From Candidatus Multivorans sp. (GTDB taxonomy: Bacteria > Acidobacteriota > Thermoanaerobaculia > Multivoradales > Multivoraceae): a DNA stretch of 64,000 nt. The first letter of the stretch is position 1. Each line of letters starts with the position of its first letter. Location: the NCBI GenBank assembly GCA_965247095.1, contig OZ251997.1, positions 2,752,001 to 2,816,000 on the forward strand, read 5' to 3'. The position numbers and the translations under genes are program-made. This document shows, piece after piece, positions 29,315 to 33,473 of the stretch. A model generated the notes under the pieces. It searched no databases and was not told the DNA's origin. It worked only from the letters and a program-made list of their open reading frames with translations.

Positions 29315-30121
29315 ATGACCACTCGACTTTCGCAACGCTACGGCGGCGCCGCCCTGATTACAGGCGCCTCCAGCGGTATCGGGGAGGCCTACGCGCGGCG
29401 GCTTGCCGATGAGGGCATGGAACTGGTGTTGGTCGCACGGCGCACCGACCGGCTCGAGAAGCTGGCGCGGGAACTGCGCTCGGCCTCGGGTGTGACGGTC
29501 CATGTCGTTCCCCAGGACCTTGGGGAGCGCGCCGGCCCGCGGCTCGTCTTCGAGGCCGTCGACGATCTCGGGATCGAGGTCGGCATGCTGGTGTCGAACG
29601 CCGGCTTCGGCACTTACGGCCCCTTCGTCGAGCAGGATCCCGAGCTTCAACTGCAGATCGTCGAGGTCAACAACCGGGCGGCCGTGGGGCTGGCGACGAT
29701 TCTCGCTCCGCGGCTCGTTGAGCGCGGTCGCGGCGCGCTGATCTTCCTGTCGAGCACGGCGGCCTACCAGCCGGTGGCGTTCGAGGCGGTCTACGGTGCG
29801 TCGAAGGCGTTCAACCTGATGTTCGGCGAAGCGCTCTGGGCGGAGCTCTCGGAGCACGGAATCGACGTCATCGTGCTGTCGCCGGGATTCACGCCCACCG
29901 AGTACCAGAAGAAGGCCGGCATGGGCGAGCCCGAGCCGGTGACCGGTTGGACGAGCCCCGAGCAGGTGGTGGACGCCAGCCTGCGTCGGCTCGGCCGCGC
30001 CTCCTCGGTCGTACCGGGCTGGCGCAACCGCGTCGTCATCTTCCTGATGCGCATCCTGACGCGGCGCGCGGCGGCGCGCCTAACCTACCGGGTCAACAAC
30101 CCGGCCGGCCGATCAGGGTAG
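29315..30121 (+). CDS. short-chain dehydrogenase/reductase
   Basis: TGASSGIG, NAG, YGASK. Confidence 0.9.
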   Translation: MTTRLSQRYGGAALITGASSGIGEAYARRLADEGMELVLVARRTDRLEKLARELRSASGVTVHVVPQDLGERAGPRLVFEAVDDLGIEVGMLVSNAGFGTYGPFVEQDPELQLQIVEVNNRAAVGLATILAPRLVERGRGALIFLSSTAAYQPVAFEAVYGASKAFNLMFGEALWAELSEHGIDVIVLSPGFTPTEYQKKAGMGEPEPVTGWTSPEQVVDASLRRLGRASSVVPGWRNRVVIFLMRILTRRAAARLTYRVNNPAGRSG

Positions 30122-30141
30122 AGCAGTGACGGCGCAAGCCC

Positions 30142-30825
30142 CTAGCTCGCGGTGGCTTCGCTCCCCTCGCGCAGCCCGGCGTAGTTGTCCTCAAGGAACT
30201 CCTCGAGTTCGTCGGTATCGAAGTTGAACGGTCCCATCCCGCCCTTGTAGGCGATGATGCCGCCCCTGTCGATCACGTAGATGCGCTCCGGCCAGCCGGC
30301 GTAGCAGGCATTGGCGGTGTTGGCGATGTCGTCCACCAGGGTTCGCGTCTTGACATCCATCGCTTCGACGAACTCCTTGGCGAGGTCCATGCGGTCAACC
30401 ATCGTCTTCGGCTGATTGAAGATCAGTTCGTTGGTCACGTTCTTGGGCGCTTGCCACTCGTCGTCGGGGTGGGCTTCCTTGATGTAGATGTAGCTGAACT
30501 CGACCGCCGGGCTCCACTCTTCTCGCACCTCTTCGAGCCGGGCCACACGGGCCCGGAAGGGCGGTCACGTGTAGCTGCCGAAGACGAGCACGAGGGGCTT
30601 GGCAGCCCACAGGGCGGAGAGGCGCATCGGATCGCCGCCGACCAGGTCCAAGGGCAGGTCGGGGGCGAAGTCGCCGACCTGGAGGATGCCCTCCGTGCGA
30701 ATGTCGTACTCGTTGAGCCGGATGAGTCCGCGCTCCGCCAGGAAGCGGTAGGTCTTGAAGCCACCCCATCCGAGGACACCGAGGATGACCAGACTGACAA
30801 CGACTATCGTGACCCAGCGGTTCAT
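30142..30825 (-). CDS. iodothyronine deiodinase-like thioredoxin-fold selenoprotein (in-frame UGA at 30565-30567 read as Sec)
   Basis: The two ORF-track pieces (30565-31188 and 30142-30546) are in one frame: TM anchor, VGDFAPD, KPLVLVFGSYT-U-PPF, YIYIKEAHPDDEW, VDDIANTANACYAGWPERIYVI, YKGGMGPF. These match DIO-family motifs (FGSCTUPPF, YI.EAH..DGW, Y...PERL, YKG..GP). Confidence 0.88.
30531..30564 (-). promoter_or_regulatory. putative bacterial SECIS element immediately 3' of the UGA
   Basis: UGA-CCGCCCUU-CCGGGCC-CGUGU-GGCCCGG: 7-bp stem whose apical loop begins 16 nt after the UGA and carries GU; possible lower CUUC/GAAG pairing. Confidence 0.65.
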
Positions 30826-30872
30826 GGCGGACTCTCCTCGTGGTATGGGGCGGAAACTATAGCGGAACCGCG

Positions 30873-32054
30873 CTAGGCGGCCTTTCCGACCACGGAGACG
30901 CAGCTCACGCAGTTGCCGGGAAGTCCTCCGAGGTTGTGGGTCAGTCCGATGCGCGGGTCGGCGACCTGCCGTTCGCCGGCCTCGCCGCGCAGTTGTAGCC
31001 AGATCTCGTACATCATGCGCAGGCCGCTGGCGCCGATCGGGTGGCCGAAGCTCTTGAGTCCGCCGTCGGAATTGATCGGCTGGCGACCGTCGAGTTGGAA
31101 GCGGCCGTCCAGGCAGTCTTTCCAGGCCTTGCCGCGCTCGGAGAATCCGAGGTCCTCCATCAGCACCAGCTCGGTCGGAGTAAAGCAATCGTGGACCTCC
31201 GCCAGACTGATTTCCTCGCGCGGGTTGGTGATGCCGGCCTGCCGGTACGCGTCCTCGGCGCTCGCGACGACTTCGGGGAAGGTGGTGAAGTCATAGTCCG
31301 GTTTCTTGACTCCTTCGGCCGGCCCGACGACGAATCCGACGCCCTTCAAGAGAAGCGGGTCGTCGCAGTAGCGGTGGGCGTCCTCGGCCCGGCAGAGGAC
31401 CGCGGCGGCAGCGCCGTCGCTTACTCCCGAGCAGTCGAAGAGCCCGAGCTTGCCGGCGATCGCAGGAGAGGACTTGATCCGTTCCAGCGGTACCTCGCGC
31501 CGGAACTGGGCCTTGGGGTTCTTGGCCCCATTGGCGTGGTTCTTGTACGCGATCCGGGACAGCACGTCCTTCAGCGTGTCTTCGCTGACGCCGTACTTCT
31601 CGGCGTAGGCCGGCACGATCATGGAGAACGCCGCCGGCGGCGTCATCTCGAGTTCGGTGCCGTCTGTCGTCGGATTCAGATCGAAGAGCCCGGAGTAGCC
31701 CGAGTCCTTCAGCTTCTCGACACCGAGGGCCATGACGATGTCGTAAGCGCCGCTGGCGACCGCATAGGCCGCGTTGCGCAGAGCTTCGCTACCGGTGGCG
31801 CAGAAGTTCTCCACGTGGGTGACCGGCTTGTAGCGAATCTTCAACGGCTCGGCGAGGAGCAGACCCGAGGCGAGGGTGCCGGCGCTGCCGAGCCAGAAGG
31901 CGTCGATCTCGGCGAGATCGAGCCCCGCCGAAACGAGTGCCTCTTGCGACGCCGTCAGGGAAAGATCGCCGATGCTCTGATCCCAGTGCTCTCCGAAGGA
32001 AGTGCATCCCATCCCGATGATCGCGACCCGATCCTTGATTCCATGACTCGGCAT
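30873..32054 (-). CDS. SCP2/SCP-x-type thiolase (acetyl-CoA acyltransferase)
   Basis: VENFCATGSEA, EVHDCFT (HDCF), KSFGHPIGASG. Confidence 0.9.
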   Translation of the reverse strand: MPSHGIKDRVAIIGMGCTSFGEHWDQSIGDLSLTASQEALVSAGLDLAEIDAFWLGSAGTLASGLLLAEPLKIRYKPVTHVENFCATGSEALRNAAYAVASGAYDIVMALGVEKLKDSGYSGLFDLNPTTDGTELEMTPPAAFSMIVPAYAEKYGVSEDTLKDVLSRIAYKNHANGAKNPKAQFRREVPLERIKSSPAIAGKLGLFDCSGVSDGAAAAVLCRAEDAHRYCDDPLLLKGVGFVVGPAEGVKKPDYDFTTFPEVVASAEDAYRQAGITNPREEISLAEVHDCFTPTELVLMEDLGFSERGKAWKDCLDGRFQLDGRQPINSDGGLKSFGHPIGASGLRMMYEIWLQLRGEAGERQVADPRIGLTHNLGGLPGNCVSCVSVVGKAA

Positions 32055-32090: not shown

Positions 32091-33473
32091 TCAGCGCCGC
32101 GGTCTGGCCTTCCAGAAGTAGTTGTGAATGCCTTCAGCGGAGTGCAGGCAGCGAAACGTCATCTCGACCCGGTCCCCGATCCGCACGTTGTGCGGGTCGA
32201 TGTCGGTGAGTTGGCAGGGTAGCCTGCCGCCTCGATCGAAGTCGAGCATGGCGACGACCACCGGCGGCTGCAGGGAATAGGCGAGATTGTCCTGCGTGTA
32301 GGTGGCGATTGAAGCCGCCCTGTCGGCGAAGGACTCGGGCTCGGTCTCGTCGATCGAGTCGCACTCGACGCACACTCTCTGGGGCGGCAGGTTCGCCGTG
32401 CCGCAGTTGGCGCAGCGCGATCCGACGAAGCCGAATTTCCAGCGCTTGGCGCGATACGACGGCGGCGCTGCCGGCCGCTTCGGGTCGGGACGGCGAGGCT
32501 TCTCGAATGGAAGCACGCCGCGCCACTTGAGGTAGGTGTTGTATTGCAGGTCGTTGCGCTTGGCCTCGATCCATCGTCCCACGCTCCGCTCGGGGCGGTT
32601 GGCGGCGATCGCGTCGGTCACCTCGAAGATGATCGCGTCGGCGCCGTCGATGCCGGCGATGACCGCGATCCGGTCGCCGGGCTCGGCCCGGTCGAGAACG
32701 TTTGCCAGGGCAAGGCCCACATGCGCGGTGCCGGCCCGCCCGACGGAGGCCGCGAGATCGTCGGCCAGGCGATCGGCGGGAATGCCTGCCTTGGCGACGA
32801 AGCTCCGCACCGCGCGCGGGTTCGTGCTGTCCACGATGACCCTGGTCAGGCTTTCCGCGGCAACGCCGGCGCCGGTCAGGGCCTGCTCCAGCGCGCGCAG
32901 CATGAGGGGAACGATGATCTGAGTCCCGAACCGCTCCTCCCATTGATTGGCGAAAGGCTCATTCGGCGCCCGCCACACGTCCATGAACTCGTCGGTCGCT
33001 GAGCCGCTGCCCAGAACTTCCGCGCAAGCTTCGACGCTGGGACCGAAGCTGAAGGCCGCGGCCCCGTCGCCGCCGGTCGCTTCACGCGCACCGCCTGGGG
33101 CGCCGACCATCACTTCGCTCAGGCACACGAGCGGCCGTCGTCCGCCGAGGGCCAGGTCATTGCCAAGCGCCAGGGAAGACAGGCCGGCCCGGCTCGAGCC
33201 GCCGAAGTCGTGCCCCCCAACGCCGGGCGGCAAGTCGAGCGCCGCATGGATGGTGGCGGCGTCCAGTTTCTCGGCGTAGGCGGGCGTTGTCGTTGCGAAG
33301 CAGAGAGTGTCGATCCGGGCGCCGCCGCGCAGAGCCTCGCGCGCCGCCTCGACCGCCATCGACACCGAGCTCTCGTCGTAGCTCGCCGCGGCGCGCTCAC
33401 CGCGGCCGCCGAACACGGCGCGGTTGAGGCGGTTGTACGGTACGTAGGCGCCGTAGGTGACGATTCCAGCCAA
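32091..33473 (-). CDS. HMG-CoA synthase-like domain fused to a DUF35 (Zn-ribbon + OB-fold) domain
   Basis: AGIVTYGAYVPYNRL, DESSVSMAVEA, GDGAAA; C-terminal CANCG...PPQRVCVEC and VRIGDRVEMTFR...NYFWKA. Confidence 0.85.
   Translation of the reverse strand: MAGIVTYGAYVPYNRLNRAVFGGRGERAAASYDESSVSMAVEAAREALRGGARIDTLCFATTTPAYAEKLDAATIHAALDLPPGVGGHDFGGSSRAGLSSLALGNDLALGGRRPLVCLSEVMVGAPGGAREATGGDGAAAFSFGPSVEACAEVLGSGSATDEFMDVWRAPNEPFANQWEERFGTQIIVPLMLRALEQALTGAGVAAESLTRVIVDSTNPRAVRSFVAKAGIPADRLADDLAASVGRAGTAHVGLALANVLDRAEPGDRIAVIAGIDGADAIIFEVTDAIAANRPERSVGRWIEAKRNDLQYNTYLKWRGVLPFEKPRRPDPKRPAAPPSYRAKRWKFGFVGSRCANCGTANLPPQRVCVECDSIDETEPESFADRAASIATYTQDNLAYSLQPPVVVAMLDFDRGGRLPCQLTDIDPHNVRIGDRVEMTFRCLHSAEGIHNYFWKARPRR

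Follow-up and report, generated by a model that had tools for sequence, protein, structure and literature searches.

Bacterial relatives of the iodothyronine deiodinases were first reported in 2005, when Zhang, Fomenko and Gladyshev described four selenocysteine (Sec) and six cysteine forms from the Sargasso Sea, together with a bacterial selenocysteine insertion sequence (SECIS) element, and suggested a redox function for them (PMC1088965). An analysis of Global Ocean Sampling data in 2008 reports 22 Sec and 21 Cys forms (PMC2398784), and the family is listed in two reviews (PMC9312934; PMC13188914), the second of which, from 2026, gives its function as unknown. Here we describe a gene of this kind in a stretch of 64,000 nucleotides from the acidobacterium Candidatus Multivorans sp. 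(assembly GCA_965247095.1, contig OZ251997.1, positions 2,752,001 to 2,816,000 of the forward strand), which is called the window below and whose own numbering is used throughout. What has been read as two open reading frames (ORFs) is, very probably, one gene for a 227-residue selenoprotein of the iodothyronine deiodinase family (PF00837), in which the UGA at codon 87 is recoded by a SECIS hairpin inside the reading frame, which acts on a substrate other than a thyronine, and which stands alone in its genomic context. The gene belongs to a family known since 2005 and is in itself no surprise to a specialist.

Like the bacterial proteins described in PMC1088965, the window protein has a PF00837 domain, an active-site Sec that is Cys in homologs, and a hairpin right after the UGA with a G in a small apical loop. 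The two reviews give a UxxC motif for the bacterial family, whereas the window protein has U-P-P-F, without Cys at +3, as in the animal enzymes; it also has an N-terminal membrane helix, and its gene comes from a complete Acidobacteriota genome rather than from a marine read set. With Dio1-3 of vertebrates it shares the fold (30% identity over the core), the motifs FGSxT-U-PPF and YIxEAHPxDxW, the ERxY strand, GGxGP and an N-terminal anchor. It departs from them in that its SECIS element lies inside the ORF, which is the bacterial type, whereas that of the vertebrate genes lies in the 3′ untranslated region, and in that thyroid hormone is not expected in the host organism.

A reading frame containing UGA

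The initial annotation of the window, made from its letters alone, had proposed a hidden, membrane-anchored, deiodinase-like selenoprotein with a bacterial SECIS-type hairpin, and this proposal is borne out by the Sec machinery of the genome, by the TGA found at the same codon in related loci and by the Cys found in distant homologs. The gene lies on the minus strand, which had been left unnamed (Table 1). When TGA is read as U (Sec), the two apparent ORFs join in one frame across a single in-frame TGA within VFGSYT-U-PPFR, and the product has the predicted length of 227 residues; a plain ORF listing divides the gene into a 134-residue ORF (30142..30546) and upstream pieces. Among the deiodinase motifs that had been claimed, YI.EAH is present as YIKEAH at residues 114-119, but PERL is not, the sequence being WPERI here, FERL in mouse Dio3 and FERV in Dio2. 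In the three closest relatives (L022-L024, 4001-4741) the frame extends 19 codons beyond the stop of the window gene, giving 246 residues vs 227, and the same tail is found in P0003.

The Pfam model T4_deiodinase (PF00837) matches residues 74-214, spanning the TGA, with an E-value of 2.5e-32 and 112.5 bits against a gathering cut-off of 27, and both AhpC-TSA (PF00578; 25.8 bits, cut-off 26) and Redoxin (PF08534; 18.8 bits, cut-off 26.6) fall below theirs. Among solved structures, mouse Dio3 (4tr3, E 2.8e-23) and Dio2 (9h48, E 4.8e-23) are nearest in sequence. An AlphaFold2 model of the window protein, built from 31 aligned sequences, has a mean predicted local distance difference test score of 88.7; in it a helix (residues 2-31) is joined by a low-confidence linker to the thioredoxin-fold domain, and a further helix closes the chain at the C-terminus. 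U87 falls between a strand (78-83) and a helix (88-104) of the fold. Foldseek ranks 9h48 (E 3.5e-13) and 4tr3 (E 3.4e-12) first and second, at 30% identity and with template modelling scores by target length of 0.79 and 0.75, respectively, and the next-best structures are ResA/TlpA-like oxidoreductases and 1-Cys peroxiredoxins. The likeness to the latter two groups is structural only: the window protein has their thioredoxin fold behind an N-terminal anchor, but it lacks CxxC or UxxC and carries the deiodinase insertion.

A hydrophobic N-terminal segment comparable to that of the window protein occurs in 25 of the 31 aligned homologs. Two Planctomycetota homologs (L052:98-817 and L057:3818-4537) have lipobox-like N-termini (..MAGC.., ..VAGC..) and an extra insert of about 20 residues before the domain; judging from these motifs, the proteins of that clade may be exported lipoproteins.

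Conservation of the UGA codon was followed in 37 related loci from public genomes (Candidatus Multivorans, other Acidobacteriota, Vicinamibacteria, Planctomycetota and one 'Xenobia'), whose products are 39-98% identical to that of the window. The same codon is TGA in 37/37, always within FGS[YCFW]T-U-PPF, and both halves of the protein are conserved. Within the genus, all ten matches hold exactly one TGA inside the match. A sample of the phylum gave a PF00837 match above cut-off in 33 of 301 genomes, and 30 of these 33 hold exactly one TGA anywhere inside the match; when three unpublished genomes (G024, G049 and G152, all with TGA) are set aside, the numbers become 30 of 298 and 27 of 30. Two strong matches without a stop, in G279 and G280, have Cys at the site (VFGSYT-C-PKL and VFGSYS-C-PNF), as do P0032 and P0112. 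A wider survey of the site took the 150 best representatives of a library of 1.8 billion proteins, 141 of which cover it, with C in 125, W in eight, S in five, and A, R and L in one each; the other nine are C-terminal pieces that start after the site. The alternation of Cys and Sec at this position, which the initial annotation had named as something to look for, is thus seen, with TGA in the related loci and Cys in more distant homologs, and no close homolog carries any other residue. The Cys-type distant homologs L060 (G280:C8) and L061 (G279:C1) are fused to an N-terminal tetratricopeptide repeat (TPR) domain; longer fusions are frequent among the library representatives as well, and in P0123 the domain occurs twice.

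Gene callers annotate this DNA in another way, according to which it would be a nonsense pseudogene or two small genes, one for a membrane peptide of 86 residues and the other a C-terminal ORF of 134 residues with GTG at 30546 as its start. The public calls for the relatives are indeed mostly C-terminal pieces of 124-130 residues, the nine pieces among the 150 library representatives are of the same kind, and damaged copies exist elsewhere: in L050, L053 and L055 (match regions from 4001) the frame is lost or ends early after the catalytic core. These three, of which L050 is a second copy in the L032 genome, may be pseudogenes or assembly errors. Yet a broken gene or a gene pair hardly fits with a TGA kept at one codon down to 39% identity between two conserved halves, with Pfam, Dio2 and Dio3 alignments that cross the TGA, at which the thioredoxin fold would be split, or with the covarying hairpin and the complete Sec machinery described below, and we regard it as very improbable.

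The SECIS-type hairpin and the selenocysteine machinery

The 7-bp GC stem with its CGUGU loop 16 nt downstream of the UGA, as given in the initial annotation, can be read directly in the sequence; the 16th base past the UGA opens the loop, whose second base is G. Of 198 segments of 30 nt compared within the window gene, the one that follows the UGA folds most stably. Because folding energy does not discriminate across the family, support for the hairpin was taken from its position-specific presence and from covariation. With a stem of at least 6 bp (G-U allowed) and a loop of 3-6 nt starting 14-28 nt from the U of the UGA taken as the criterion, a hairpin occurs in 37 of 38 sequences, when the remainder of the same genes would lead one to expect about 0.23 per locus. 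The stems comprise ten different sequences, distributed over four registers, and G is present in 36 of the 37 loops, 27 of which are GGC, GGU or CGUGU, the others being GGUC, CGGGU, GUG, GUC and CCAG.

Covariation was assessed in an alignment of 17 sequences (11 distinct) that share the register of the window gene and that are related, so the changes are not independent events. In it, 96.1% of the cells are paired, and both sides have changed in three of the seven pairs. The covariation score is 0.379, compared with 0.124 ± 0.039 in shuffled alignments (none of 500 reaches 0.379), and controls with slid partners pair at 48% or less. In one compensatory pair the changes on either side are silent (CGG..GCC to CGA..GCU), so that R-A-R-V-A-R is retained, and a second alters two amino acids together (A..A to S..D). 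To judge from these sequences, the pattern is the one expected of a SECIS element that is also coding sequence.

The genome, a single contig of 4.6 Mb, has the complete Sec system that the initial annotation had left to be looked for: selA (439.5 bits), selB (339.3 bits, positions 2-578 of 581) and selD (260 bits) all score above curated cut-offs, and tRNA-Sec is found at 74.1 bits and called by ARAGORN as tRNA-SeC with the anticodon tca. A second RF01852 match in the genome scores 52.9 bits. From the conserved codon, the hairpin and this machinery we infer that the UGA is recoded to selenocysteine: SelB bound to Sec-tRNA(Sec) would bind the hairpin and deliver selenocysteine to the ribosome at the UGA. 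That an alternative code or near-cognate suppression instead puts Trp, Cys or Gly at the UGA is scarcely credible. Trp does stand at the site in eight of the 141 representatives and in P0013, for which the simplest cause is gene calling with a table in which TGA is W, and the eight are probably TGA codons called as Trp. Among ORFs of 500 codons or more the genome uses TGA as its commonest stop (646 of 1143), the residue corresponding to the site is Cys in homologs and Sec in the animal enzymes, and the gene has a dedicated hairpin in a genome with a full Sec system.

Other genes of the genome bear on its use of Sec. Four AhpC/TSA-type matches outside the window (Table 1) each have one in-frame TGA followed by a hairpin, in the motifs TSG-U-T, W-U-PYC, W-U-PPC and Y-U-GC, and on the strength of these features they are probably further thioredoxin-fold selenoproteins. 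Three molybdopterin-enzyme matches (G000:C1:3128550-3129884, 78632-79840 and 2342315-2343463) all lack an in-frame stop, and no Sec-type formate dehydrogenase was seen among them despite the full Sec system.

Contigs from RNA libraries of two studies bridge the TGA at 30437-30737 (301 bases, 5 differences), 30400-30656 (267 bases, 10 differences) and 30202-30625 (437 bases, 36 differences), with no difference at 30565-30567 among the rows listed; the 301-base contig, 98% alike, comes from a library labelled 'sponge metagenome'. They lend weak support to expression. A 40-base stretch, 30554-30593, which covers FGSYT-U-PPF and the first 13 bases past the UGA, is matched alone by long RNA contigs of other organisms at a depth of up to 325, a hint that those libraries are rich in other deiodinase-like genes.

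Several observations weigh against the reading of the gene as a recoded, membrane-anchored selenoprotein. The RNA-library contigs give no strand, ends or level and may contain DNA, and the stretches they leave uncovered are uninformative. Compared with shuffled sequences, the 66-nt fold has a z of 0.22, that is, no added stability in DNA of 68% GC; the post-UGA segment ranks first in only five of 38 genes and among the top three in eight, and about 20 loci, mostly of a clade with an AU-richer stem, are without unusual stability there. L054 has no stem of 6 bp or more at the post-UGA position, and an Rfam scan of 30100-30900 with E-values up to 10 gave only a chance snoRNA match. At the Sec site, eight of the 141 library representatives have S, A, R or L and eight have W, although no case other than Cys or Sec is a close relative. 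The NCBIfam model NF038285 (deiodinase_rel) aligns with the C-terminal 160 residues of the window protein at 163.3 bits, below its cut-off of 250, and over model positions 177-338 of 347 only, its N-terminal 175 or so positions having no counterpart here. The count of positive charges around the N-terminal segment (mean K+R of 1.8 in the short N-flank vs 3.0 in the 15-residue C-flank, 25 sequences) is ambiguous as to orientation in the membrane. Finally, neither experimental Se incorporation into any bacterial member of the family nor any other experiment on a bacterial deiodinase-like protein was found in the literature searched, which excluded subscription papers.

Table 1. Features of the deiodinase-like gene, its neighbours in the window, and the AhpC/TSA-type matches elsewhere in the genome
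Feature	Position	Strand	Basis or remark
Deiodinase-like selenoprotein gene, complete	30825..30142	minus	227 codons plus TAG stop (30144-30142); translation with TGA read as U, PF00837 match
Start codon ATG	30825-30823	minus	Direct sequence reading
GAGGAG before the start codon, 8-base spacing	30839-30834	minus	Direct sequence reading
In-frame UGA, U87 in FGSYT-U-PPF	30567..30565	minus (tca on the plus strand)	Corresponds to the residue changed from Sec to Cys in the Dio2/Dio3 crystal constructs
SECIS-type hairpin within the coding sequence; 7-bp stem CCGGGCC/GGCCCGG, loop CGUGU	30556..30538	minus	Starts 8 bases past the UGA
Hydrophobic N-terminal stretch (residues 5-23, VTIVVVSLVILGVLGWGGF), either an anchor in the membrane or a signal that is not cleaved	30757..30813	minus	Kyte-Doolittle mean 2.34 over 19 residues; helix 2-31 in the model
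Thioredoxin-fold catalytic domain with deiodinase-type insertion, residues about 45-203	30217..30693	minus	AlphaFold2 model, Foldseek
Cys174 (+87 from Sec), the only cysteine of the protein	30304..30306	minus	Kept in 11 of 31 sequences (own clade)
Thiolase gene	30873-32054	minus	NF004810, 596 bits
HMGS-like/ChsH2-DUF35 zinc-ribbon and OB fusion	32091-33473	minus	
DUF3604/CehA-McbA-type metallohydrolase, 863 residues	33497-36088	minus	
OmpR/CadC-type winged-helix regulator with TPR repeats, 578 residues	27498-29234	plus	
AhpC/TSA-type match with in-frame TGA	G000:C1:931984-932361	minus	Outside the window
AhpC/TSA-type match with in-frame TGA	G000:C1:776298-776738	minus	Outside the window
AhpC/TSA-type match with in-frame TGA	G000:C1:2459503-2459901	minus	Outside the window
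AhpC/TSA-type match with in-frame TGA	G000:C1:2592395-2592727	plus	Outside the window

Active site and possible chemistry

The Dio2 structure described in PMC11592359 gives a proton relay made of Ser127, Thr129, Tyr157, Glu160, His162 and His182, and further names Trp167, the substrate-site residue Phe224 and a carboxylate clamp, Lys241 (Arg275 in Dio3). These residues were mapped through an alignment with the window protein, in which the numbering is derived from motif spacing. Ser127, Thr129, Tyr157, Glu160, His162 and Trp167 correspond to S84, T86, Y114, E117, H119 and W124, which are invariant or nearly so, and Phe224 corresponds to Pro179 within an invariant WP-R, so that the cis-Pro of thioredoxins is kept. 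Invariant residues cluster in the deiodinase-specific insertion, EAHPDDEWQ...N...QP.

Three features speak against a deiodinase-like chemistry. His182 of the relay is replaced by Pro139, an invariant Pro in the 31 sequences, which leaves five of the six relay residues; the carboxylate clamp is lost, its position being Met197 (GGMGPF); and the proximal and distal cysteines of the vertebrate enzymes have no counterpart. According to PMC9141512, human DIO1 is recycled through a selenenyl-sulfide with a proximal Cys at -2, and a distal Cys lies 69-76 residues past Sec, whereas in the window protein the -2 position is Tyr85 and residues 156-163 contain no Cys. The residues with which vertebrate deiodinases bind thyronines are not kept here, which makes a thyronine an improbable substrate.

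Cys174 is a candidate for the resolving (partner) thiol. Each of the 31 aligned sequences has at least one Cys besides position 87, at clade-specific places: 174 in 11 sequences, 85 (-2) in 13, 135 in four, and 152/153 together with 162 (+75) in four. Such a distribution would fit a recycling thiol that has moved, which, with about four lineages, is only a lead.

In outline, the protein would most likely act as the vertebrate deiodinases do. The selenolate of U87 would attack an electrophilic atom of a small substrate, the network of Ser84, Thr86, Tyr114, Glu117 and His119 would supply a proton, and the oxidised selenium (Se-X or Se-OH) would then be reduced by a thiol, either Cys174 or an external one. 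From the residues kept and lost we infer a peroxiredoxin-like selenol cycle with a substrate other than a thyronine. As to what that substrate might be, a peroxide or a disulfide-type redox substrate is a good candidate, though short of a probable one; reductive dehalogenation of some halogenated phenolic is nearly as good a one, and something else again would take up the rest.

It is a serious possibility, if not yet a probable one, that the selenoprotein works as a thiol peroxidase or a thiol-disulfide oxidoreductase in the style of peroxiredoxins or ResA/TlpA, with no halogen chemistry at all. ResA, TlpA-like proteins and 1-Cys peroxiredoxins are the closest structures after Dio2 and Dio3, the AhpC-TSA score is just below its cut-off, the thioredoxin cis-proline (WPER) is kept where Dio2 has Phe224 and the thyronine clamp is absent, the genome encodes at least four other Sec-type AhpC/TSA-like proteins, and a redox function is what the authors of 2005 proposed (PMC1088965). 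Set against this are the invariant residues of the deiodinase-specific insertion, which is not found in peroxiredoxins or ResA, and the motif U-P-P-F, which is neither CxxC nor UxxC.

Gene neighbourhood and distribution

The gene lies, as the initial annotation had it, directly downstream of a hydrolase/HMGS-DUF35/thiolase cluster, all genes being on the minus strand and the gap to the thiolase gene being 47 bases. The same annotation took the protein for a Sec-dependent reductive dehalogenase or thiol oxidoreductase and saw in this position a hint that halogenated lipids or aromatics are fed into beta-oxidation; on that view a Sec-dependent dehalogenase would serve the cluster as an operon partner. 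Apart from strand and spacing, no terminator-like site lies between the two genes (a scan of 29900-31100 found neither promoter nor terminator), an RNA contig covering 30740-30913 with zero differences runs from the last part of the thiolase gene into the first part of the deiodinase-like gene, and the arrangement is kept in seven close relatives. A contig across two genes, however, does not prove one transcript, and the functional tie is not upheld by comparison: the thiolase/HMGS-DUF35/hydrolase neighbours recur in only seven of the 37 related loci, all 81-98% identical and of one named genus, and in L028, of the same named genus (77%), FG-GAP genes lie upstream instead, with a short-chain dehydrogenase/reductase remnant and the regulator kept downstream. 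The neighbourhoods of the 30 more distant loci are mutually unrelated. Within the genus the deiodinase-like gene is present in ten of 42 genomes, when selA matches are found in all 42 (41 above cut-off), and the HMGS-DUF35/thiolase pair (58-59% and 72-73% identity) occurs without it in all three of the gene-less genomes of the genus that were examined. The operon-partner proposal is therefore improbable, and to judge by these comparisons the gene is an accessory, stand-alone unit and not a functional part of the thiolase cluster.

A scan of 104 of 106 flanking ORFs, taken from 31 loci out of 37, all but one lacking the cluster, in which the near-identical L022-L024, L026, L027 and L030 were left out and two ORFs of L025 were dropped, revealed no recurrent partner gene beyond closely related genomes. 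Next to the deiodinase-like gene, AhpC is seen in L042 alone, and L044 alone has a Trp-halogenase-like protein there. The latter, from an Acidobacteriota metagenome-assembled genome (L044:1483-3930, plus strand), is an 816-residue flavin adenine dinucleotide protein (Trp_halogenase, E 4.6e-14) whose gene, read in the same direction, stops 14 bases short of the deiodinase-like gene, a single case. The winged-helix regulator of Table 1 keeps its place near the deiodinase-like gene in L028 too, a locus that lacks the thiolase cluster.

A bolder view, which we consider unlikely, is that natural bromo- or iodo-phenolics, such as the bromotyrosine-type compounds of sponges, are the true substrates of these membrane-anchored Sec enzymes in Acidobacteriota and Planctomycetota, which would dehalogenate them reductively. 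The enzymes would in that case be the counterpart in bacteria of thyroid-hormone deiodination chemistry and might have been its evolutionary origin, and their recycling Cys would have moved among -2, +48, +75 and +87 in different clades.

For a family described in 2005, the locus provides an example from a complete genome that could be expressed and assayed: its SECIS element is clear, and the protein is membrane-anchored and has one cysteine only. What to test is narrowed by the conserved core relay, the absent thyronine clamp, the retained cis-Pro and the clade-dependent position of the Cys. For annotation, the public gene calls of the relatives nearly all split or shorten the gene, and because it is cut in two or truncated in this way, a real 25-kDa selenoenzyme is missing from the proteomes of a widespread group.

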